Source: Candidatus Hodarchaeum mangrovi (GTDB taxonomy: Archaea > Asgardarchaeota > Heimdallarchaeia > Hodarchaeales > Hodarchaeaceae). From it: DNA of 64,000 nt. Position 1 is the stretch's first letter, and each line of letters opens with the position of its first letter. The position numbers and the translations under genes were made by a program. Below, one piece after another: positions 7,779-19,285 of this stretch. The notes under the pieces were generated by a model, which worked only from the letters and a program-made list of their open reading frames with translations, was not told the DNA's origin and made no database searches. Where the stretch lies: NCBI GenBank assembly GCA_016839515.1, contig JAEOUE010000197.1, positions 12,766 to 76,765 on the forward strand, given 5' to 3'.

Positions 7779-8402
7779 ATGGATTATATCGATCTTTTAG
7801 ACCTATGGCGAAAGGAGAGGAAAAGCCATTCGCTTCAAAAAATCCCCTCTGATTTTTATATTTCCATAGATAGTGAATTAGCTAAGATTTATAGAACTTC
7901 CTCTGAGGTACAATGGAGAGAATTAAATGATCTAATTATTGAGCGATTCGAATTTTTACGTCAGGATCTTACCAAACTTAGACTTCAAAAAATATTAAAT
8001 TCGATTATTAATGAATTACCAATAGAGACAGCTTATTTAACTTGGGGAGAACAAAAATTAGTGGAGAATTTACAGAAATCGATTAATACATTAAGCATCG
8101 AGAAACCAAATTTTTATACTCAGGATATTTCTCTTAACATGAGTTTACAGGAAGATCCAGACCAAGATACAGATCAAATCGACAAAAATGGCGAGATTAA
8201 TAATAATACTGTCACATACATAACAGTGAGAATTCTCGCTGATACTGACCAATTTATTGGTACAGATAATAGGCGGTATGGACCCTTAAAAAAGCATAAT
8301 GTGGCATACCTACCATTAGAGAATGCAAAAGCATTAATTGCTAAATCTGTAGCTCGTATTATTGAAAATAACACAAGAACAACTTCAAGTGAAATACAAT
8401 GA
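7779..8402 (+). CDS. GINS complex subunit Gins15 (Gins51)
   Basis: WRKERKSHSLQKIPSDFY helical A domain, C-terminal B domain FIGTDNRRYGPL..LPLENAKALI; conserved position before eS27, aIF2a and Nop10. Confidence 0.88.
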   Translation: MDYIDLLDLWRKERKSHSLQKIPSDFYISIDSELAKIYRTSSEVQWRELNDLIIERFEFLRQDLTKLRLQKILNSIINELPIETAYLTWGEQKLVENLQKSINTLSIEKPNFYTQDISLNMSLQEDPDQDTDQIDKNGEINNNTVTYITVRILADTDQFIGTDNRRYGPLKKHNVAYLPLENAKALIAKSVARIIENNTRTTSSEIQ

Positions 8403-8587
8403 AGAAAAATTACGTCCCTCAACCTCGTAGTCGATTCTTTAAAATTCAATGTGAATGTGGAAATGTTCAAGAGATTTTTTCTCATGCAACAACTTCAGTA
8501 GATTGCCGTGTATGCGGAAAGAAATTAACACAACCTCGTAGTGGAAAAGTTGAAATATTTGCAGAAATAATTGAGGTATTAGAGTAG
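8399..8587 (+). CDS. rps27e: Ribosomal protein eS27
   Basis: PRSRFFKIQCECGNVQEIFSHA..CRVCG..L.QP.SGK. Confidence 0.96.
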   Translation: MKKNYVPQPRSRFFKIQCECGNVQEIFSHATTSVDCRVCGKKLTQPRSGKVEIFAEIIEVLE

Positions 8588-8602
8588 AATAGGCGATATC
8601 GA

Positions 8603-9388
8603 ATGGAAGTTAATTTTCCTGCTGTCGATGAGCTTGTAATCGGAACATGTACTAAATTAACTCCTCATGGAGCTTATTTTGAAATATTTGATTATGAAAA
8701 ATTAGGTTCAGAGGCAGGTTTTGTCCATATTTCTGAATTAAGTCGAACTTGGGTAAGAAATATTCGAAGTCACATACGAGAAGGACAAAAAGCAGTAGTT
8801 AAGATACTTCGGGTTGATGAAGCAAGGGGAGAGATTGATATGTCAATACGAAGAGTCTCAGAACCCCAAAAACGAGCTAAACTGAATGAGTTCAAGCAAG
8901 AAAACCGTGCAAGAGGAATCGTCGCTGTAGCCTGTGAAAAATCCAACATTAAAACTGAAGAGATTGAAAAGCTAATAATGACCGAGTATGGTTCTATTTA
9001 TGATGGTTTAATCAATGCCCGAGAAGGCAGTGTTGACATTTTAACCAAAATAGGGATTCCAAAGGAAGCTGCAGAAGAGATTTACCAACTTGCAGTGAAA
9101 GAATTGGAACCACCCAAAGTTGAATTATTTGGGTACATAGATATCACCTGTTACGAAGCTGATGGAGCGCTTCATATAAGAAATTTCTTCAAATCTTATG
9201 AAAAAAATTTCTCGAAAAAATTTAAAGGATCAAATTTCTTAATTCAAATTATTTCTCCACCTGAATATCGCTGTGTAATTGAAAGTAATGATTGGAAATC
9301 AGCTGAAACAATTTGGAAAGACCTCCAAGATGGGGCTACGGAATTCTTTAAACAATATGATGCTGAAGTTTCCTTTAAACGAAAATAA
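8603..9388 (+). CDS. eif2a: Translation initiation factor aIF2 alpha subunit
   Basis: S1 domain FVHISELSRTWVRNIR, KILRVD..RGEIDMSIRRV; genomic context. Confidence 0.95.
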   Translation: MEVNFPAVDELVIGTCTKLTPHGAYFEIFDYEKLGSEAGFVHISELSRTWVRNIRSHIREGQKAVVKILRVDEARGEIDMSIRRVSEPQKRAKLNEFKQENRARGIVAVACEKSNIKTEEIEKLIMTEYGSIYDGLINAREGSVDILTKIGIPKEAAEEIYQLAVKELEPPKVELFGYIDITCYEADGALHIRNFFKSYEKNFSKKFKGSNFLIQIISPPEYRCVIESNDWKSAETIWKDLQDGATEFFKQYDAEVSFKRK

Positions 9389-9414
9389 TCTAACTCGAAA
9401 CTAATGGGGTAAGA

Positions 9415-9591
9415 ATGCGACTCTTAAGAAAATGTGATTGCACATATACTATTAATCAATCAATAAAAATGTGTGAAAAATGCAAAACATATTTCAGAAG
9501 TGCATATCCCCCTAAATTTTCACTTCATGACAAATATGCTACTTATCGAAGGAAAATGAAAGAGATTGCTCGTGAAGGAGAAGAATTATGA
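9415..9591 (+). CDS. nop10: H/ACA RNP protein Nop10 (not in the ORF track)
   Basis: Manual translation MRLLRKCDCTYTINQSIKMCEKCKTYFRSAYPPKFSLHDKYATYRRKMKEIAREGEEL; PPKFS..DKY..YRR motif; follows aIF2a; ATGA overlap with the next gene. Confidence 0.92.
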   Translation: MRLLRKCDCTYTINQSIKMCEKCKTYFRSAYPPKFSLHDKYATYRRKMKEIAREGEEL

Positions 9592-10088
9592 CCGAACAGA
9601 CTCCAATACTGATTCAACAATTTCAGTTAAAAGATTTGGATCAAGTTATTGAGATTAATAGAGAATGCTTACCAGAAAATTATCCAGAAAGATTCTTTCG
9701 AACAATTTATTCAGAATTACCGTCAGCATTCATAGTAGCTAAAATTGGGGAACAAGTAATTGGGTACACAATGGCACGCGTTGAAACTGGTTTAAGTCAT
9801 TATTCGATTTTTCATAGGGGAAAAAAGGGGCATACTGTTAGTATAGCAGTTAAACCTGAATATCGTCGAAAAGGAATAGCAAAAATGCTTTTAAAGCGGT
9901 CAATTGAAGCTATGGTAGAACATGGTGTTAATGAATTATTTTTAGAAGTAAGAGTGTCAAATGATGCCGCAGTTAATCTTTATAAAAATTTTGGGTATGA
10001 AATTTTAAAAGAAATAAGAAATTATTATAGGGATTATGAATCTGCATATCTAATGGCCAAAAAAGTACCAAAAGATAAATTGATTTGA
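9588..10088 (+). CDS. N-terminal acetyltransferase, Ard1/RimI family
   Basis: INRECLPENY, GHTVSIAV.PEYRRKGIA, LEVRVSN.AAVNLY, YYRD.ESAY.M. Confidence 0.93.
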   Translation: MTEQTPILIQQFQLKDLDQVIEINRECLPENYPERFFRTIYSELPSAFIVAKIGEQVIGYTMARVETGLSHYSIFHRGKKGHTVSIAVKPEYRRKGIAKMLLKRSIEAMVEHGVNELFLEVRVSNDAAVNLYKNFGYEILKEIRNYYRDYESAYLMAKKVPKDKLI

Positions 10089-10397: not shown

Positions 10398-11399
10398 ATG
10401 GTGATCATAAGAATGAAGGATTATCTGTTAAAGGCTAGTAATGCCTTAACTCAGTTAAATAATACTGTTTCTATTAATGCCCGAAGTATGGCTGACGTAG
10501 TTTTAAAGATTTATACTGAGTTCGAAGAATATAGGTATATTGCTGAAACTATTCCTGATTTTATAATTCGTCCAGATAATACAAAATCAAATCTTAAAGC
10601 AAGTGGTGAGATCCGAGTAGCACAGTTATTAACCTCTATTCTGTGTGATCGAATAACAGAATTGTCTTTAAAGTTATGTGAATCTCTTGAATTCAGAGAG
10701 GAAGAAGTTGATGTCAAATTAGAAATCAGGGAGATAAAAGATCAAGTATTCCGATTAGGTGAAGTGATCCATGTCCAACAAAAACTAGCTGATGGTGCTC
10801 CTGTATCAACAGAGGCGATTCAAGATTTAAGTAAACGTTACGAAGCTAGAATAATTCAGCTAGAACAAGAACTCCTTAAAAAAGAGGGACGCGCGTTAAC
10901 AATTACTGCATTAGATGCCGTTAAAAAGCCTAAAATATTTGGTAAAGAGAAATTCAAATCTTCACTAGGAGATCTTATTTTAAGTTTTGGAAAAAATCTT
11001 CGTGCTAGCTCTGGGGGGTATATATCTCTTGCAAATCTTTATACTGCCCTTAAAGAGCAAGTTCCAGACATTAATTTTTCAACAAAGGATCTAGAAGAAG
11101 TTTGTAAGATTCTAGCTAAACAAGACCTAATTTCGGGTCTTACAAAAAGATCTGGGGTTAAAATAGTAGAATTTATACCTGTTAATTTAGGAGAAGATGC
11201 AAAGAAAATATTTTCTTTAGCATCAAAAAAAGGGTTTGTAACATATGAGGAGGTTATCCTGGGAACAAAATGGGATCAACCACGTGTTGATCGTGTCCTT
11301 GAAAGCCTTGTAAATCAGAAAATAGCTCGAAAAGTATCTAGTCTTGATTCTGGGGATCAGTATTTCTTCCCTGGATTGTATGGAGAAGATAATTGGTAG
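10398..11399 (+). CDS. ESCRT-II Vps22/Vps36 (EAP30)-like tandem winged-helix protein with a long N-terminal helical region
   Basis: The C-terminal ~130 aa (GGYISLANLY...P.NLGED.KKIFSLA.KKGFVT...TKWDQPRV.RVLESL...YFFPGL) follows the Snf8/Vps22 pattern as I recall it. Confidence 0.8.
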   Translation: MVIIRMKDYLLKASNALTQLNNTVSINARSMADVVLKIYTEFEEYRYIAETIPDFIIRPDNTKSNLKASGEIRVAQLLTSILCDRITELSLKLCESLEFREEEVDVKLEIREIKDQVFRLGEVIHVQQKLADGAPVSTEAIQDLSKRYEARIIQLEQELLKKEGRALTITALDAVKKPKIFGKEKFKSSLGDLILSFGKNLRASSGGYISLANLYTALKEQVPDINFSTKDLEEVCKILAKQDLISGLTKRSGVKIVEFIPVNLGEDAKKIFSLASKKGFVTYEEVILGTKWDQPRVDRVLESLVNQKIARKVSSLDSGDQYFFPGLYGEDNW

Positions 11400-11409
11400 G
11401 TAATGAAAA

Positions 11410-12294
11410 ATGACTGAAGTTGATACAGAAAGATTTGGTGGATTATTTCGTAAAATCGGGGATGCAGTTCATATTGGTACAAAAACGTTCAAAGGAAAGA
11501 CAATTCTTGGCTCTCAATTTGGATCTGATGCTTTAATATGGAGGATAAAATCTGATGATGTAGAAAATTTTCGTAAAATAGACGGATTCATCGTAAAAGA
11601 TCCAGAAAATGCTATCCTCCTTCAATCAGGGACTCTCGTAGGCGTTGCTGGAAGCGGAATATATGAACTTGATAAAGATGCAAAAAAACCTGGTAGTGAA
11701 ATTATCTGGGTTACAAAACGAGAATTTGTTATTAAATGGGGTAGTCCTGGAGTTTATACAACTGATAATATTATGGTTGGATGTTTTGGCATCTCTCGTA
11801 TGAGAGTAGTAAATCCTCGGAATTTTATTATGAATATTGTATCACATAAACAATATTATACTAGTGAAGAATTAAGAAACTGGGTTAAACAGACAATTAC
11901 CTCTGCAGTTAAACATGTTATGTCACGTTATACCGTTCCTGAATTATTAAAGGAAAGAAGGACTTTAGCTATTCAAACGAAATCCGAACTAGCTCCTGAG
12001 ACATCTAGATGGGGTTTAGAACTTGTAGGATTAGATATTGGGGGTTTTAAAGTACCAGATGAGTACCAAGCCCTACTTTCATATGAGATTGAAAAACAGG
12101 TTTTAGAAACCCAAAAAGAATTGGATGAAGCACGTAAATCCATGAATGAAGTTTCTGAACTGATAAAGAAGTATGAACATATGATAGAACAAGCTGATGA
12201 AATGTTCTTATCAGGAAAATTATCAGAAGAACGATACAAAGAACTAACAGATAAATATTCAAAAAAATTAGCTAAACTAAAGGCTCAATTTTAA
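11410..12294 (+). CDS. SPFH/band-7 domain protein (YdjI-like) with C-terminal coiled coil
   Basis: LIWR, IKWG.P, FG..RMRV.NP..F, WGLEL..LDI.G..VP; C-terminal G.LSEERY..L motif. Confidence 0.85.
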   Translation: MTEVDTERFGGLFRKIGDAVHIGTKTFKGKTILGSQFGSDALIWRIKSDDVENFRKIDGFIVKDPENAILLQSGTLVGVAGSGIYELDKDAKKPGSEIIWVTKREFVIKWGSPGVYTTDNIMVGCFGISRMRVVNPRNFIMNIVSHKQYYTSEELRNWVKQTITSAVKHVMSRYTVPELLKERRTLAIQTKSELAPETSRWGLELVGLDIGGFKVPDEYQALLSYEIEKQVLETQKELDEARKSMNEVSELIKKYEHMIEQADEMFLSGKLSEERYKELTDKYSKKLAKLKAQF

Positions 12295-12304
12295 TAACCA
12301 GCCT

Positions 12305-14071
12305 TTACATTTTCCGAGTTTGGAGGGAACCTCCACAATCTGGACATGTAGTTACCCCTACAGCTTTGATTTCCTCATAACAATTAGCACAGATATTATT
12401 TCTGCATGATATGCACTGAAATCCAATTGCTGAATGATTAGCTAGATTACATATGCTACAATCGAACTTAAAACCAAGCTTTTCAAGAATGATAGAAGTA
12501 GATGGAATGTCAATATACCCATTTATCTCTCCATAAATAATTAAATCCTCAATTTCTCTTATTATATTAGATTCTGAATCTTTAATCTCTCTAAAAATCT
12601 CTTGAAGGGGAACTTTCCTTGTTTTTTTATCTTCTATTAAAAATTTTAAATTGAAATTCAAACTAGGGGGCGAGTCAATTTTTGAAAATTCATCTAAATA
12701 CCATCCATTTTTCAGTGGTCCTTTTTTGCAAAAATAACACTGCTCAGCACTAACAAGGTTGAAAGAATGTGTATATGTTATTCTACAGTCAGGACAATTC
12801 CTAGGAAGGTCTATAATAAATGCAGCGATATTCCCGCAAAATGGACATTCATGTTTACTATTTAAGGGTCTGCAATCAGAACATACAATCCTTCGGCAAT
12901 TTTGACACTCATAATAAAGATTTGGATCTGAATAAGAAGAAGTATCAATTTGACAAAATACTTCAAACTTCTTCACACCTCGAATGAGAAATGGAGAGGA
13001 ACTTTCACCAGCAATAATACGAAAACCAAGGACTAAGGATAAATTTATGATTACATTTAATAATAAATCAGTATCTAAATTAAGATTTCGTGCAATTGAT
13101 TCTACATCTATTCCTCTATCTAGCCAGATTTCTAATCGCGGAGAAATATAGACATTCTCTCTAATAATCCCATCTAAACTTTTATTTATTTTATTTAAAA
13201 ATGAAATAAACTCTAAATATTCAATATTAAAGCGTTGTAACCAGAATTCAATCGGAATATGACGATAAATATAGATATCAAAGAGTATTTGCGAAACCAT
13301 ATGGCTTATTGAGTATATATGTTGTTGATCAGAAGAAAAAAGGAAAGGTATTCCTTTACAATTTTCTTTTAACATTTTTTGGCATTTTTCAATATCAATT
13401 CTAAATAACCTGCTAAGAGTCTTTAGAGATATTTCTGGTTCAAGAATAAAGGTAGTATTGAGAAAACGTTCGAAAAACTTGATATCCTTCTCAATTTGGT
13501 TTGGAGTCGAAAAATCTAAAAAAGTTAGATTATATATACGATTATTTAATGGATCTATATATCCGTAAAAGGTTCCTTGTTGTGCCATTAAATCTAAAAT
13601 GGCTTCTAAGTGTTCTTCGGACCAATTGATTTGTTTTAAAAGAAATTTGAGGTCTATACTTCCTGTTTTTCCTAGTATATTCTGCAGAAAAATCATAGCT
13701 CCATTTGGTGTAAAAAAATATCTTCGAATCCGGTCAAAGAATCCATCATATTTCTGAAGTGATTGAAACATCACAATCTCTAGGATCTCTCCAGGTAAAT
13801 TGGTTGCATCAATCAAATCACAAATGTCTACATTTCCTTTTTGGGTTAAATTATGTTCAATTAATTCATTAATGTAAGAAAGCGGAATGTAAAAATCATC
13901 ATCTGGTGTTAAAATTCCATTCAACACTTTTTCACTAATGCTTTTTCTTATAAAGAGAGCGATTTTTTGAAGGTCTTCTGAGCTATCAAAAGATTGAAGA
14001 GACACAGGTTCTGTCAGTTTCTGAGCGAAATCTAGCCATTTATCCTCTTTTTTTCGAAACATATTATTCAT
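12305..14071 (-). CDS. Multi-winged-helix (UFL1-like/PCI) protein with Zn fingers and RING-like domains; candidate E3 ligase
   Basis: PCI-like WH motifs (G.FYGYID; IEDLII.GEINGYID), internal Cys cluster CQNC..CSDC..CPFC, a Zn ribbon and a C-terminal CSIC..CISC..CANC..CPDC; lies downstream of E1/Ubl on the same strand. Confidence 0.65.
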   Translation of the reverse strand: MNNMFRKKEDKWLDFAQKLTEPVSLQSFDSSEDLQKIALFIRKSISEKVLNGILTPDDDFYIPLSYINELIEHNLTQKGNVDICDLIDATNLPGEILEIVMFQSLQKYDGFFDRIRRYFFTPNGAMIFLQNILGKTGSIDLKFLLKQINWSEEHLEAILDLMAQQGTFYGYIDPLNNRIYNLTFLDFSTPNQIEKDIKFFERFLNTTFILEPEISLKTLSRLFRIDIEKCQKMLKENCKGIPFLFSSDQQHIYSISHMVSQILFDIYIYRHIPIEFWLQRFNIEYLEFISFLNKINKSLDGIIRENVYISPRLEIWLDRGIDVESIARNLNLDTDLLLNVIINLSLVLGFRIIAGESSSPFLIRGVKKFEVFCQIDTSSYSDPNLYYECQNCRRIVCSDCRPLNSKHECPFCGNIAAFIIDLPRNCPDCRITYTHSFNLVSAEQCYFCKKGPLKNGWYLDEFSKIDSPPSLNFNLKFLIEDKKTRKVPLQEIFREIKDSESNIIREIEDLIIYGEINGYIDIPSTSIILEKLGFKFDCSICNLANHSAIGFQCISCRNNICANCYEEIKAVGVTTCPDCGGSLQTRKM

Positions 14072-14236: not shown

Positions 14237-14557
14237 ATGAGTCATTCAGAATTTAGATGTATAAATTGTGGATATATTCCACATGAGTCTCCTGTATCAG
14301 GGAATTGGTATTGTCCCAAATGTGGAAAGCGATCAACGATAAAAATTGAACAGCCTCTCCACGTTCGAAGTTATTTACGGCATAAAAGTGTTCATCAACG
14401 AAGTAAAGATGAAATATATAATGATATTTATAAAAAACTTACTCTAGAAGAAAAACAAGAATTGGGTTATAAAGAACCTTATATAAATCCAGTTCTATCT
14501 TCAGTAGAACCCAAAAAGAGGGAAACCATTCGTCTTTTCTTACCCTCTGATAATTAA
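14237..14557 (+). CDS. Small Zn-ribbon protein
   Basis: CINCG...CPKCG; 106 aa. Confidence 0.6.
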   Translation: MSHSEFRCINCGYIPHESPVSGNWYCPKCGKRSTIKIEQPLHVRSYLRHKSVHQRSKDEIYNDIYKKLTLEEKQELGYKEPYINPVLSSVEPKKRETIRLFLPSDN

Positions 14558-15795
14558 TTATTTTTTTTCTCAAATATAACTTTAATTCTTTTGTCTTTTT
14601 CACCATATAAGGGTGAAAAAGTTATTCGATCCCCATTCGAGAGAATATCCTTTATTATATCTCCCTCATTCAGATGTTTATTTCCTCTAAATGCTAAGAA
14701 TTCATCTTCATATTTATTATTTACTTCCTGAACAATTTCTATGAATCTATTATCTGGATTTACATGGATCATTGATATTTGATCTGAATTTATTCCCCTA
14801 TTTCCACAAACAAAACAATCGGGATCTGCTAATAGTTTAAAAGTGGAAAAAGTGCCTGTAAGTCCTGAATAAATAGTTAAAGAAGGAATCTGGAACCTCT
14901 CCGATTTTCGTAATCTTCTCAAGATTTTTTGATCTTTTCTTTTAAGAGAAGACCTTTTTTCAAAAAAAAGTGTGTTAATTATCAATTGAGATTGAATACC
15001 ACTAATTACTGAATTGACAGTTATTATACTTGGAATATGAGTAAGTATGAGTTGTTTTAATTCTTTGATATCATAACTAGGAAATTTGTGATTTTTTGTG
15101 CAATTATTTGCAATTTTCTGAAGAAATTTCATATCTTTATTAGAATTTTCTCTGGGCTCTCGATTATATCTTGTATAAAAGGAATAAAGAGCCTTCCAAG
15201 CACAATGTTCACGAATTCTCGGAGTTCCAACCAATGTACATGGAGCTGTCCAAATATTTGTTTCATCTGGTGGGGGAGGATTGTCACATGCTAAACAAGA
15301 TGAAAAATTCTTCTGAATATATTGAACTTGTCCAATGTATCCATCAGTAGCAGAATCAATATATGGTTTAGATAATTCAATTGCTAATGAATTAATATAT
15401 TGACGAGCTAAAAAATTATCGACGCATCCAGCAATAATGTCAACTTCTTCAAAAATTTCAGTAGGGATGTCTTGGATTTTAATTGAAAATGCTTCAACAT
15501 TTACTTGTTTATTGAACATCGTACTAATTCTATCTTTCGCAACTTCTGCTTTACTCTTTCCAATATCTGTTTCTCGAAAGAGCATTTGACGATTTAGATT
15601 TGAATATTCAATTGTATCAACATCAACCAAAATTAATTTTCCAACGCCTAGGAGTGACAGATTTTTTATAACCTCACTTCCAGTGCCACCTATGCCCACA
15701 ACAAGAACTGAACTATTCTGGATTAATTTTTGATCCCATAAAACTAATCGTTCTTGTCTATCATACCGCAAGTTATATTGATCTTCTTGTGACAT
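14554..15795 (-). CDS. Ubiquitin-like activating enzyme E1 (UBA3/UBA2-like)
   Basis: RYDRQ, GIGGTG, DVDTIEYSNLNRQMLF, Zn pairs CLAC and CFVC, catalytic Cys motif PCTLVGTPRIREHC, and a probable C-terminal ubiquitin-fold domain. Confidence 0.93.
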   Translation of the reverse strand: MSQEDQYNLRYDRQERLVLWDQKLIQNSSVLVVGIGGTGSEVIKNLSLLGVGKLILVDVDTIEYSNLNRQMLFRETDIGKSKAEVAKDRISTMFNKQVNVEAFSIKIQDIPTEIFEEVDIIAGCVDNFLARQYINSLAIELSKPYIDSATDGYIGQVQYIQKNFSSCLACDNPPPPDETNIWTAPCTLVGTPRIREHCAWKALYSFYTRYNREPRENSNKDMKFLQKIANNCTKNHKFPSYDIKELKQLILTHIPSIITVNSVISGIQSQLIINTLFFEKRSSLKRKDQKILRRLRKSERFQIPSLTIYSGLTGTFSTFKLLADPDCFVCGNRGINSDQISMIHVNPDNRFIEIVQEVNNKYEDEFLAFRGNKHLNEGDIIKDILSNGDRITFSPLYGEKDKRIKVIFEKKNN

Positions 15796-15828: not shown

Positions 15829-16158
15829 TTATCCACCCTTAATCTGATCAGGGACAATCATAAGCATTGCATTTTCTTCAATGTTGTAACTTGATAAGCT
15901 ATTTGATGGATTCATGCGTCTACCTTTGTATAATAGAGCAATTGGCACTACTTCAGGAATATTGAACGCATCACGAGCTGCTCCAATAGCTTGAAAAACG
16001 CTCCCATTCATATTGATATATTTTTCACGAACGTTTTGATCTGGAGGGAGCTGAGGATCTTTAAAACGTACTTTCACCATTTTTTCTATACTTGAATCGG
16101 AGGGACTTTTTCTGACTGAATTATCCCATATAACATCTTTTTTAGACAATATTATCAC
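15829..16158 (-). CDS. Ubiquitin-like modifier ending in Gly-Gly (UFM1-like features)
   Basis: Beta-grasp pattern LLYKGRRMNP..SLSSYNI, C-terminal KGG-stop, adjacent to E1. Confidence 0.9.
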   Translation of the reverse strand: MIILSKKDVIWDNSVRKSPSDSSIEKMVKVRFKDPQLPPDQNVREKYINMNGSVFQAIGAARDAFNIPEVVPIALLYKGRRMNPSNSLSSYNIEENAMLMIVPDQIKGG

Positions 16159-16169
16159 CTTTTATTAAA

Positions 16170-16970
16170 TTAGACATATAGTAAACGTTCAATTTCGGAT
16201 AGAGTTGTTAAAAGATCAATTCTACCTTTTGCATAATCCTCTAAAGGACCTTTAATGAGCGGATATGTGTTTAGTAGTTCACTTTCGAGCCCTATCGGAT
16301 AGTTCTTTTTTCTTTTGATAATTAAATTAATGATTTCCCCATCTTGTGCATAGAATTTTACAATAATATCTTTTGTACTAACCGTTGAATCATAGTTTGT
16401 AAGGATTTTTTTGATAAGTGGGTCTTTTTCATATTCAACTGTTGAAAATTCAGGTTTTTTTATGCTTACATCAACCTCCCCTAAGGCTTTTGGAATTTTA
16501 TCCTCCGCAAGCTTGTAGATTTCTTCTAATACGTTGAGAATGCTTGAAGAATTAGGAGTCCAAGATTTCATCGACGGTAAATCGTTGAGTTCACAATCTA
16601 GAATTTCTCGAAGTTGACTGGGTCCATCGATATATGGACGAGCAGGCAGATCATCTAAAACTACGAGCAATGGAAATGCATAGGCCCCTACTTGCATTTT
16701 GATTCTGATTTTTCCAATCTCATCCCCAATATATTCACCAGGAAAGTTTTCTAATACTTTTTGCCCTTCTTGGTAAATCAAATAGTAAGATTCAGCTTTT
16801 AATTCATCATCGACAATCGATTCATTTTCAGCTGTGAAAGAGGACCGTTTTATGTAATTTGTAAGATCACAATAATCACACTTCACAGGAAATTGAAAAA
16901 TGGGTTTTTGAGAGAGAGGAGCACCACAACCATTACACTGCGCAATATTACTCTGAATTTCGAAATCCAT
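16170..16970 (-). CDS. Zn-ribbon plus UEV/RWD-like (BRE/BABAM2-like) protein
   Basis: CNGC..CDYC, then FPLLVVLDDLPARP...LPSMKSWTPNSSSILNVLEEI, an E2-fold-like segment without the HPN/Cys motif; first gene of the Ubl-E1 run. Confidence 0.55.
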   Translation of the reverse strand: MDFEIQSNIAQCNGCGAPLSQKPIFQFPVKCDYCDLTNYIKRSSFTAENESIVDDELKAESYYLIYQEGQKVLENFPGEYIGDEIGKIRIKMQVGAYAFPLLVVLDDLPARPYIDGPSQLREILDCELNDLPSMKSWTPNSSSILNVLEEIYKLAEDKIPKALGEVDVSIKKPEFSTVEYEKDPLIKKILTNYDSTVSTKDIIVKFYAQDGEIINLIIKRKKNYPIGLESELLNTYPLIKGPLEDYAKGRIDLLTTLSEIERLLYV

Positions 16971-17218: not shown

Positions 17219-17818
17219 ATGAGTGTTTTAAGAGATCCATTATATCGAACTCTAAGTTATTACCGAAGTGAGATAGCTATGCAAGACCTGCATTCAAGAA
17301 GGTTAAGAGAAGAATTTAAGAGAATGTTAAAGATATTTCCACCAAAATCCAGTCATATTAAATGGAAAATAATCGATAATGACCTTCATCATTATCGTGC
17401 GACTATTTTTGGTAAAACTGGGACACCATTTGAAGGTGGAAAATGGGATATTACAGTAGATTTACCACCCGAGTATCCGTTCAAACCTCCCATTGTTAAC
17501 TTTATAACACCTATCTGGCATCCGAATATTGCTGTTGGAAAAACAAAATGGACTTGGGGATCTAATGTATGTTTAAGCTTGGTGAATTGGAATAATTTGG
17601 GGAAACCAGGCGGCTGGAAAGAAACGATTACTTTACCCAGTGTATTTGAACATATTGAAATGATGTTGGATATATATGAAAGTGTTGATAATGCTGACTT
17701 TCCTGAGTATCTTGTTGATCCAGAGGATCCATTTAATCCAGAAGCAGGAAAAGAGATGAAAGAAAACTTTCGGGCTTACTGGGAAAAAGCTTCCGATTGG
17801 ACAAAGAAGCATAGCTGA
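17219..17818 (+). CDS. Ubiquitin-conjugating enzyme E2 (UBC family)
   Basis: RRLREE, GTPFEGG, YPFKPP.V.F.TPIWHPNI, VCLSL catalytic Cys, DPFNPEA. Confidence 0.96.
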   Translation: MSVLRDPLYRTLSYYRSEIAMQDLHSRRLREEFKRMLKIFPPKSSHIKWKIIDNDLHHYRATIFGKTGTPFEGGKWDITVDLPPEYPFKPPIVNFITPIWHPNIAVGKTKWTWGSNVCLSLVNWNNLGKPGGWKETITLPSVFEHIEMMLDIYESVDNADFPEYLVDPEDPFNPEAGKEMKENFRAYWEKASDWTKKHS

Positions 17819-17834: not shown

Positions 17835-18413
17835 ATGCCTTTAGAATCTAGCAACGAAAAAAATAATCAAAAAAATCATCTAAATGAGGTTAAGAAACCT
17901 TCATCAAAGAACAAAGACAAGAAAAAGATTGTTAAATTAGATATTAAAGTAAAATCGGTTTCGATCTACTGGAAACACATTCAGAAGATGACCGATTTTT
18001 CCGTACGATCTATACCTAACGAAGCTATCGGTCTTCTCGGAGGGAGAGAAATTAGGAAAGGTGAACTTTTGGTAGAAAAAGTAATTCATATATCCACTGG
18101 CGACGAAGTCTCAGTATCTTTTTCAGATGATGATTTCAAGTCTTTTGAGGATCTTCTTAATGAAAATAATCATTGCATTGGATGGTGGCATTCTCATCCA
18201 GGATATGGATTGTTTCTTTCTCCAACTGATTTAACAACTCATATTTATTCCTTTCAAGTTCATAATCCACTATCTGTGGCACTAGTTTTAGATCCAACAA
18301 GAATTAATAATCAATGTGCTGATTTTACATGTTATCAAGTAAAAGGAGAAAATGGGATTTCACCCTTTATTTATAACGAAATAGCTAGCTATATCATAAA
18401 ATCAAAAGACTAA
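17835..18413 (+). CDS. JAMM/MPN+ metalloprotease (Rpn11/CSN5-like deconjugase)
   Basis: EAIGLLGG, IGWWHSHPGYGLFLSPTD, VALVLDP. Confidence 0.95.
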   Translation: MPLESSNEKNNQKNHLNEVKKPSSKNKDKKKIVKLDIKVKSVSIYWKHIQKMTDFSVRSIPNEAIGLLGGREIRKGELLVEKVIHISTGDEVSVSFSDDDFKSFEDLLNENNHCIGWWHSHPGYGLFLSPTDLTTHIYSFQVHNPLSVALVLDPTRINNQCADFTCYQVKGENGISPFIYNEIASYIIKSKD

Positions 18414-18472: not shown

Positions 18473-19285
18473 ATGGTGTCCACATCATTATCTTTTAGTT
18501 TTTATAAGCGTATTAGTGGTCAAATAGCTCATTTTTTCCTTCAAAGCGGTTCAGCAACTGATTATACAATAATTGACTATTTTTTTGTTTTTTTAGGTCC
18601 AGCTGCAGTACTTTTCTTTACGTTCTACCTTTGGTGGTCAGGAAAAAGGAAGAATCGCAAGATTATGAGGATAACACAGGAGTCTTTAATCCAAGTATTC
18701 TCAAAAGAGTTCGAAGATCTCATTATGGAGCAGATGAGTTCAAATGGGGGCCTTTTATTTCCTAAATACAAAAAATCTACTGTAATTCCCTTTAAGGACT
18801 TTCGTGTTGTATTTGCTCTCGAAGAACGTCATTTAATGCTATCTGTTATTATTTCTTGGTTTTCAGGAGCTAAAGATTATATTGCATTAGAAGCTAATCC
18901 TAAACGTGGAAAAACATCAACCAAAATTCAAATAATTCCTAAGAAAGAAGAAGGACAAATTAAGAAACACCAAGATTTGCTATTTACTCTCGATGAAATA
19001 GAATTAGGGGTGAGACAGCTTGATGAGACATATATTTGGAAAGCATCATCAAGCCGATCAGGATTGTATTTTCTTTCAGATAAAACTCTCCTGAAAAATA
19101 TACATAAATTGCGAAACAATCTTGTTCGAATTTCTATAGATTCCTCAGATGATCCTTCTATTCGAATATACGTCAAGATAAATAAGGATTTAGACCTTGA
19201 ACAGTTATACATAACATTTATGGCTTTGTGTGAGAGGGTTGACCAAGTATTTGATAAAACTGTAATGAAAAAAACTCGAAATTAG
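18473..19285 (+). CDS. Single-pass membrane protein, CCDC47 (PAT complex)/DUF1682-like
   Basis: TM helix followed by GKRKNRKI....L...F and a later L..RH...SVI......KD.I segment, resembling CCDC47 as recalled. Confidence 0.6.
   Translation: MVSTSLSFSFYKRISGQIAHFFLQSGSATDYTIIDYFFVFLGPAAVLFFTFYLWWSGKRKNRKIMRITQESLIQVFSKEFEDLIMEQMSSNGGLLFPKYKKSTVIPFKDFRVVFALEERHLMLSVIISWFSGAKDYIALEANPKRGKTSTKIQIIPKKEEGQIKKHQDLLFTLDEIELGVRQLDETYIWKASSSRSGLYFLSDKTLLKNIHKLRNNLVRISIDSSDDPSIRIYVKINKDLDLEQLYITFMALCERVDQVFDKTVMKKTRN

Follow-up and report, generated by a model that had tools for sequence, protein, structure and literature searches.

Organisation of the Locus and of P0001

The DNA analysed here (the window) is a stretch of 64,000 nucleotides (nt) from the Asgard archaeon Candidatus Hodarchaeum mangrovi (GenBank assembly GCA_016839515.1, contig JAEOUE010000197.1, positions 12,766–76,765 of the forward strand). 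It is AT-rich (GC content 0.28–0.36) and lies on contig C138 of a source genome (G000) of 4.0 Mb and 91% completeness. The open reading frame (ORF) at 12305..14071 on the minus strand encodes a protein of 588 amino acids (aa), P0001, with zero internal stops; the coordinates given for it in the original prediction, which had been made from the letters alone, were exact. P0001 carries an array of winged helices (WHs) of the type found in UFL1 together with RING-like fingers, and its gene adjoins genes for a ubiquitin-type E1, a ubiquitin-like protein (Ubl) and an E2. We lean towards reading P0001 as the scaffold-type (RING-type) E3 ligase of this adjacent Hodarchaeales-specific ubiquitin-like system, or as an adaptor of the E3 kind.

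From the N-terminus, P0001 comprises a UFL1-type (PCI-like) WH array of approximately three units (residues 18–178; 13538..14020), detected by profile comparison with the PDB, hhalign and the Pfam PCI model, and a helical middle region (residues 179–365; 12977..13537) with a weak WH-unit signal, possibly containing more such units. These are followed by RING-like finger 1 (residues 366–415; 12827..12976), detected with a profile of the C-terminal finger, a four-Cys zinc ribbon (residues 416–452; 12716..12826) marked by invariant cysteines, a PCI-like WH (residues 471–527; 12491..12661) detected by hhalign and, in distant orthologues, by Pfam PCI, and a C-terminal C4C4 RING-type finger (residues 528–588; 12308..12490) detected by profile comparison with the PDB. 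All of these features lie on the minus strand. The domain list first proposed (UFL1-like WH units, a RING-like cluster, a Zn ribbon, a PCI-type WH and a terminal C8 RING-like finger) was thus upheld at the level of sequences and profiles. Identity of P0001 to 35 family members was 70% in the central finger and 72% in the zinc ribbon, 45% in the WH array, 38% in the middle region, 35% in the C-terminal finger (residues 528–582) and 27% in the C-terminal WH. The central finger-plus-ribbon module is therefore the most constrained part of the protein.

A word-indexed search returned 62 relatives of P0001, nearly all of 582–591 aa, and those for which the source gives names were metagenome-assembled genomes of Hodarchaeales, Hodarchaeota, Heimdallarchaeota or Promethearchaeota. 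An exhaustive phmmer search of 1.84 billion representatives yielded just 30 proteins at E ≤ 1e-3. The family profile was built from an alignment of 37 members in which the homologues start at Met4 of the P0001 ORF; translation therefore probably begins at this Met, at position 14062. As a single sequence, P0001 gave no PDB match with E below 0.27 (phmmer), and NCBIfam gave zero matches over the cut-off for P0001 and four neighbours. The ESM Atlas held no usable match to the whole protein; matches to residues 360–588 scored < 0.8 and served as leads only. In one of four metatranscriptome runs, a 174-nt contig was identical to 13672–13845, and the other three runs contained no match to P0001. 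This is too little for a claim of transcription, and DNA carry-over is possible.

Winged-Helix Array and Similarity to UFL1

When the family profile was compared with the whole PDB, the top four of the 47 matches listed were UFL1 chains (8b9x, E = 2.4e-6; 8qfc, 1.5e-5; 8c0d_A, 1.6e-5; 8ohd, 1.6e-5). The alignment to the N-terminal WH of UFL1 given in the original prediction was reproduced by HMMER (profile positions 31–103 versus human UFL1), and the peptide quoted with it (GILTPDDD...DATNL) corresponds to residues 52–92 of P0001. The Pfam model E3_UFM1_ligase (PF09743) aligned to residues 66–171 at 18.1 bits, below its cut-off of 23.2, and matched 19 of the 37 members at E ≤ 0.1, with P0039 alone over the cut-off (27.5 bits). 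Because PF09743 had zero matches at E ≤ 1e-3 in 14 control genomes, the resemblance of the family to UFL1 exceeds chance. The Pfam PCI model (PF01399) matched residues 135–179 at 26.3 bits, over its cut-off of 22, as well as 29/37 members, and scored 33–36 bits on the C-terminal WH of distant orthologues.

Comparison by hhalign with an Asgard family carrying DDRGK and UFL1 domains (see below) gave a probability of 93.2% (E = 2.9e-7) over residues 18–176, and 95.3% for residues 18–178 when slices were used. Residues 456–527 aligned with the final WH in the proteins of this family (90.5%, E = 1.3e-6), and the WH of DDRGK1 matched the C-terminal WH of the P0001 family in the PDB at an E-value of 0.44 only. 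The P0001 family profile also retrieved UFL1-like proteins of approximately 790 aa from other Asgard genomes at E-values of 1e-9 to 7e-6. At the level of profile comparison, residues 18–178 are considered homologous to the UFL1-type WH array.

In the published description of UFL1 (Peter et al. 2022, PMC9627666), an N-terminal helix precedes a partial WH, to which UFBP1 supplies the missing part; five PCI-like WHs and a helical C-terminal region come next, and no E3 domain is known. Residues 22–63 of P0001 align with the partial WH. The alignment spans only UFL1 residues 20–234 or thereabouts, the position of Leu45 included, and the UFL1 C-terminal region had zero matches in the comparison of the family profile with the PDB. 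The five WHs and the C-terminal helical region of UFL1 were thus not recovered as a set; the C-terminal 220 residues of P0001 consist of zinc fingers and one WH. The suggestion that the WH unit is repeated several times held within residues 18–178 and at residues 471–527. Near residues 197–240 it found weak support: a hidden Markov model (HMM) of the WH unit scored above the 95th percentile of shuffled sequences in 29/37 members (median 4.8 bits; shuffle 95th percentile 2.1, shuffle maximum 7.2). It did not extend to residues 256–365, which had no match to this HMM. The middle region (residues 179–365) had no significant profile match; a weak match to the double-wHTH factor PF0095 covered residues 216–342 (family profile versus PDB, E = 0.054). 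All regions of P0001 are acidic (median isoelectric point, pI, 5.1–6.4; 5.1 for the WH array), and the net charge of the whole protein is −13.

RING-Like Fingers and Zinc Ribbon

Nineteen cysteines were invariant in 37/37 sequences: 373, 389, 392, 397, 400, 409 and 412 in the central finger, 426, 429, 445 and 448 in the ribbon, and 538, 541, 553, 556, 561, 564, 576 and 579 in the C-terminal finger. The spacing of eight RING ligands is present in both fingers. In the C-terminal finger it reads C-x2-C-x11-C-x2-C-x4-C-x2-C-x11-C-x2-C, and all eight ligands are invariant Cys; in the central finger the seven Cys are joined by Asp376 as the second ligand, a position occupied by Cys in the orthologue from a sister-family genome (G228). 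No Cys outside these ligands is invariant in the 37 sequences, and Cys84, for example, is Val in P0007. Because every invariant Cys serves as a ligand, a thioester mechanism of the RBR or HECT-like kind is judged unlikely. RBR chains appeared in the PDB searches with RNF31 as the best, at an E-value of 0.76 or worse, short of an RBR or HECT assignment.

The unbroadened family profile retrieved RING domains from the PDB at E-values of 0.017–0.2 only. A broadened finger profile was built from 28 fingers, namely 20 paralogous fingers of related genomes and eight orthologues, with no central finger of the P0001 family among them. Its best PDB matches were CesA (1weo, E = 1.3e-4), TRIM32 (9e-4), PRT1 (1.4e-3) and NOT4 (2e-3), followed by TRIM56, TRIM37 and RCHY1, with FYVE and C1 domains weaker (0.02–0.05). 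This profile matched residues 367–414 of P0001 at 19.6 bits, and a six-frame scan of the whole genome gave 23.6 bits (E = 2.3e-4) for the central finger. As the profile contained no central-finger sequence, P0001 therefore carries two homologous fingers. A profile of the central module itself placed C2H2 repeat proteins at the top of its PDB matches, which were rejected as spurious sums of weak stretches (each i-E > 2). RING and PHD domains came after them at 0.006–0.1, and no RBR or IBR match was obtained with this profile.

The ligand sites were also compared across 198 distinct fingers drawn from all proteins collected. Non-Cys residues occurred 121 times, and 120 of these substitutions fell on ligands 2, 5 and 6; ligands 1, 3, 7 and 8 never varied, and ligand 4 varied once. 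Ligand 2 was replaced 85 times (Asp 71, His 6), ligand 5 three times and ligand 6 32 times (Asp 20, Ala 9, His 3), and one finger lacked all three at once. These fingers are mutually related, and the independent substitution events are far fewer than the counts. Ligands 1, 2, 5 and 6 share one zinc site only in a cross-brace. As the substitutions sit on ligands of one such site, their pattern fits a RING-type cross-brace topology, as far as sequences can indicate one. In both fingers, an aliphatic residue lies between the first two ligands, and ligand 7 is followed by a Pro. The published description of the Caldiarchaeum RING E3 reports that the equivalent Ile between its first ligands is required for activity, for which a Lys/Arg linchpin behind its final ligand is important too (PMC5654768).

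Gene Neighbourhood and Phyletic Range

Upstream of P0001 in the direction of its transcription lie, on the minus strand, an E1 gene (ThiF; 14554..15795), whose product is UBA1/SAE2/UBA3-like (1e-37, versus 1e-17 for UBA5) and a putative partner of P0001, and a gene for a Ubl ending in GG, the putative modifier, recognised by sequence match (15829..16158). They are followed on the plus strand by a canonical UQ_con E2 with an HPN motif and Cys, the presumed partner of the fingers (17219..17818), and a JAMM/MPN deconjugating protease (17835..18413), both assigned by Pfam. The canonical E2 that had been noted nearby was thus confirmed as HPN-type, 3.1 kb from the P0001 gene. Between the Ubl and E2 genes lies a 266-aa reading frame, ORF266 (16170–16970, minus strand), with an N-terminal Zn ribbon. 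On the other side of P0001, the plus strand carries genes for an EAP30/ESCRT-II-like WH protein (10398–11399) and an SPFH/Band 7 protein (11410–12294), again assigned by Pfam. Upstream of this pair, GINS51 (7779–8402), S27e, aIF2-alpha and a GNAT acetyltransferase (together 7779–10088, plus strand) occur in a fixed order in both families of the order.

Several side observations concern this block. As listed, the ORF of the Ubl begins with a GTG codon, which adds a 26-residue N-terminal extension; read from Met27, the protein has 83 residues and ends exactly in Gly-Gly, so that C-terminal processing would be unneeded. ORF266 matched no entry of Pfam, NCBIfam or the PDB, whether compared as a sequence or as a profile. 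Its body is well conserved (76% mean column identity), and it is possibly a second E3-like or UEV-like component of the cluster. A gene for a small Zn-ribbon protein of 106 aa (14237–14557, plus strand), divergent from that of P0001, overlaps the 3′ end of the E1 gene by 4 bases. Past the JAMM gene, a conserved 270-aa membrane protein with one N-terminal span is encoded at 18473–19285 (plus strand). Its assignment to CCDC47 (PAT complex) was rejected, as the Pfam score was 18.9 bits (cut-off 27.7) and its profile found no CCDC47 chain in the PDB. Two Arf-like GTPase genes lie beyond the JAMM and membrane-protein genes.

The E1, Ubl, ORF266 and E2 genes adjoined that of P0001 in 16/22 genome loci, the remaining six ending at contig edges first. 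They were also found beside it in three of seven metagenome loci, the other four being short. The seven were retrieved with a profile of the distant subfamily and all proved to be members of the main family, and thus they add no independent context. The source genome contains three Ubl/E2 sets, on contigs C153, C304 and C138, the last being that of the window; with two further sets present, the window set would be an extra system. On C153, ubiquitin (52 bits) and an E2 (120 bits) are accompanied by a UEV-like protein and by two ESCRT-III genes, whereas the C304 set consists of two Ubl-like ORFs and an E2. Ufm1 and UFC1 were not found in the source genome (91% complete), in which the best DDRGK match was 14 bits, below the cut-off.

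Full-length orthologues of P0001 occurred in 23 of 400 Asgard genomes and in one order only: the source genome, 21/21 other genomes of its family and one of the two genomes of the sister family. The remaining 376 Asgard genomes yielded none, and a search of 201 genomes agreed. Among 83 genomes of the class, an orthologue of the cluster E2 (at least 286 bits) was present in 19/22 family genomes and in the sister-family genome G228, and in one more family genome it lay in pieces at contig ends. It was not found in two family genomes of 74% and 80% completeness, in the other sister-family genome (G229) or in any of 59 genomes of other families (0/59). The agreement between the two ranges is weak evidence, because the range is that of a single clade.

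In G228, the orthologue of P0001 is 27% identical and comes directly after the SPFH gene, on the same strand as that gene. Next to it lie a small Zn-ribbon ORF (L113:6647–6946), recalling the Zn-ribbon gene beside P0001, and then a GTPase gene. Adjacency to the EAP30-SPFH pair is the only linkage of P0001 common to both families of the order.

Related Architectures in Asgard Archaea

PF09743 matched in 48 of 151 sampled Asgard genomes, with 44 of these over the cut-off, and UFL1-type arrays occurred in more than one arrangement. A family of approximately 788 aa (L029:436–2796, minus strand, and 15 relatives) carries DDRGK (44.6 bits), E3_UFM1_ligase (71 bits) and PCI (83.9 bits) matches in one chain, and was present in 21/25 genomes of another Asgard family. 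The broadened RING-finger profile had no match on it. Its UFBP1-like and UFL1-like parts are fused in their eukaryotic pairing order; the proteins also bear N-terminal Cys/His fingers and a VPS28-like tail (22.7 bits, below the cut-off). Judged by these profiles, this family is a closer counterpart of UFL1/UFBP1 than the P0001 family.

A UFL1-type array combined with a finger-plus-ribbon cassette was also found in a protein labelled Ranarchaeia (P0084; C-terminal cassette, PF09743 72.8 bits), for which a homologue search returned P0084 alone, and in a protein of locus L051 (PF09743 30.6 bits). The source genome itself encodes a 915-aa paralogue (contig C194, L001:214–2961, minus strand; PF09743 23.7 bits), in which approximately 370 residues of membrane spans precede the UFL1-type WH array and two cassettes, each of a RING-like finger plus Zn ribbon. 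It would be a membrane-anchored counterpart of P0001, recalling the anchoring of UFL1 to the endoplasmic reticulum through UFBP1.

The six-frame scan of the source genome with the broadened finger profile detected 10 RING-like fingers in seven ORFs, and the same finger stands at the end of WD40, WH-only and membrane proteins within the clade (P0094–P0115). The finger-ended proteins, such as L118:866–2551, L119:1641–2942, L120:1811–2572 and L122:716–1213, include WD40 propellers (775–794 aa), a propeller-like 434-aa protein, double WH-finger proteins and membrane proteins. In L118, the linchpin position of the finger is occupied by Lys. From their sequences, the finger-ended proteins of Hodarchaeales look like a small E3-like repertoire.

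Proposed Function and Alternative Explanations

The fusion of a UFL1-type WH array with RING-type fingers in P0001 would permit the following mode of action. One finger would dock the thioester-charged canonical E2, and the best candidate is the central finger-plus-ribbon module, whose degree of conservation makes it the candidate E2-facing surface. The acidic WH array would hold a protein target or partner, while the GG-ended Ubl would pass straight from the E2 to a lysine with no E3 thioester. The C-terminal cassette of WH and finger, which evolves faster, could either bind targets or serve as the second member of a RING pair formed within the molecule. Proteins linked to membranes or to ESCRT-II are the candidate clients, since the EAP30-SPFH genes adjoin P0001 in both families of the order. 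Gene context makes an E3 function plausible, and the occurrence of the finger on varied recognition domains, as in E3 families, may by analogy be counted in its favour.

Several observations weigh against this interpretation. A RING fold alone is no proof of E3 activity, the Pfam RING models stayed below their cut-offs on P0001 and other members, and the linchpin Lys/Arg is missing from both fingers (Gly413 and Gly580). The zinc domain of CesA, the best PDB match, is not known as a ligase. The gene of P0001 forms a transcription unit by itself, running towards SPFH and away from the Zn-ribbon gene. In G228, no E1, Ubl, E2 or JAMM gene was found within 9 kb downstream of the P0001 orthologue or on the 4.9 kb upstream, and the E2 orthologue is on a separate contig of 2.5 kb. 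The conserved block also includes GINS51, S27e, aIF2-alpha and GNAT, and the synteny may therefore be plain inheritance within one clade. Finally, with at least seven finger-bearing ORFs and three Ubl/E2 sets in the source genome, the pairing of P0001 with the window E2 is not unique.

Some of these observations would suit a non-catalytic scaffold or adaptor, in which the WH array and fingers only assemble proteins and no E2 is activated; we regard this as a possible but rather unlikely explanation. Such a protein could, for example, link ubiquitylated cargo, the ESCRT-II-like EAP30 protein and the SPFH membrane scaffold, with the fingers acting as protein-, Ubl- or membrane-binding treble clefs. 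It would agree with the EAP30-SPFH adjacency as the sole linkage kept in both families, with the same-strand abutment of the G228 gene on SPFH, with the lack of the linchpin and with the CesA match, a RING-fold domain not known as an E3. Weak sub-threshold Pfam matches of P0001 and its relatives to FYVE_2, C1_2 and an ANCHR-like B-box point the same way. However, the profile matches are dominated by RING ligase domains, the phyletic range is the same as that of the cluster E2, and the finger is spread over varied recognition domains. The basic phosphoinositide-binding motif of FYVE fingers, R(R/K)HHCR, is missing from the P0001 family, where the stretch before ligand 3 reads [YF]-x-C.

The original prediction saw in P0001 a RING-dependent precursor of the UFL1 scaffold, in which case eukaryotes would have retained the WH scaffold without its fingers and gone over to UFC1/UFM1. 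The UFL1-like nature of the WH array would be in keeping with this, as would the existence in several Asgard lineages of proteins that follow such an array with a C-terminal finger-plus-ribbon cassette (P0084, the L051 protein and the 915-aa paralogue). Nevertheless, the P0001 family is confined to one order, its similarity covers only UFL1 residues 20–234 or so and leaves the C-terminal region unmatched, and no Ufm1 or UFC1 was found in the genome. In addition, the approximately 788-aa family scores far higher with the E3_UFM1_ligase and DDRGK models (71 and 44.6 bits versus 18.1 for P0001) and had no match to the finger profile. The position of the gene away from the cascade in the sister family likewise speaks against a precursor. 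A direct precursor is therefore improbable, and the claim was not borne out. P0001 looks instead like one product of domain shuffling of the UFL1-type WH array. A broader version, which we hold to be improbable, is that UFL1-type WH scaffolds first worked in RING-dependent ubiquitin-type ligases of Asgard archaea, some of them membrane-anchored as the 915-aa paralogue might be, and that eukaryotic UFL1/UFBP1 is a derivative whose finger was lost on adopting UFC1 and UFM1. If true, P0001 would keep the ancestral way in which such a WH scaffold activates an E2.

A nucleic-acid-binding regulator, as the frequency of WH and zinc-ribbon domains in archaeal DNA-binding proteins and the weak PF0095 match might suggest, is very improbable given WH units closest to the protein-binding PCI/UFL1 type, the acidity of all regions and a finger profile closest to RINGs.

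Comparison With Known Systems

Asgard relatives of UFL1 are already in print. A 2020 preprint (10.1101/2020.10.19.343400) described a fusion protein of Asgard archaea that includes an E3 UFM1 ligase domain, and the approximately 788-aa family probably corresponds to the architecture of that preprint (Liu et al. 2020) and to the ‘Asgard UFL1/DDRGK1’ of a later paper (PMC10183829). Ufm1 homologues have been reported from nine Asgard clades (PMC12962969), and Asgard ubiquitin-ESCRT clusters have also been described (PMC9192718). We found no paper describing a WH-plus-RING fusion, which the Appendix figures of PMC10183829 may nonetheless show. The prior publication of Asgard UFL1 relatives, the restriction of the P0001 family to one order and the reliance on sequence limit the value of the present findings. 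Within these bounds, P0001 would provide the ligase, so far unassigned, for a third ubiquitin-like system that is specific to Hodarchaeales, in the archaeal group nearest to eukaryotes.

Among eukaryotic proteins, the closest parallels to the fingers are CNOT4 (1e4u, 1ur6) and the N-terminal zinc domain of CesA (1weo), which share the eight-Cys pattern C-x2-C-x11-14-C-x2-C-x4-C-x2-C-x11-C-x2-C but, unlike P0001, have no WH array. WHs stand beside RINGs in eukaryotic E3 assemblies such as Nse1 and the cullin WHB domain with RBX1. These resemble P0001 by analogy only, with no sequence match in the searches made.

An archaeal parallel is srfp of Caldiarchaeum subterraneum, a reconstituted archaeal RING E3, which likewise places a RING-type finger gene with E1, E2, Ub/Ubl and JAMM genes and shares the aliphatic residue between the first two ligands (PMC5654768). 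By its published description (PMC5654768), srfp is a small RING-H2 protein that needs its linchpin Arg, and is thus set apart from P0001, a 588-aa protein with C4C4-type fingers, no linchpin and a WH scaffold. The approximately 788-aa Asgard fusions of DDRGK, E3_UFM1_ligase, PCI and VPS28-like parts have a WH array homologous to that of P0001, but differ from it in their other, N-terminal zinc fingers, their VPS28-like tail and their strong UFL1 and DDRGK matches.

Like human UFL1, the ribosome E3 for UFM1 (8ohd, 8qfc, 8b9x, 8c0d; PF09743), P0001 has an N-terminal PCI-like WH array, and its mode of action is likely scaffold-type as well, because no spare invariant Cys is available. In place of the C-terminal region of UFL1, it has two RING-like fingers and a ribbon, and whereas UFL1 works with UFC1/UFM1 and UFBP1, P0001 adjoins a ubiquitin-type E1, E2 and Ubl. 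UFL1 is odd among E3 ligases in having no recognisable ligase domain. A UFL1-type array joined to RING-type fingers beside a canonical E2 could therefore offer a testable model in which the holding of a target or partner is told apart from the activation of the E2.

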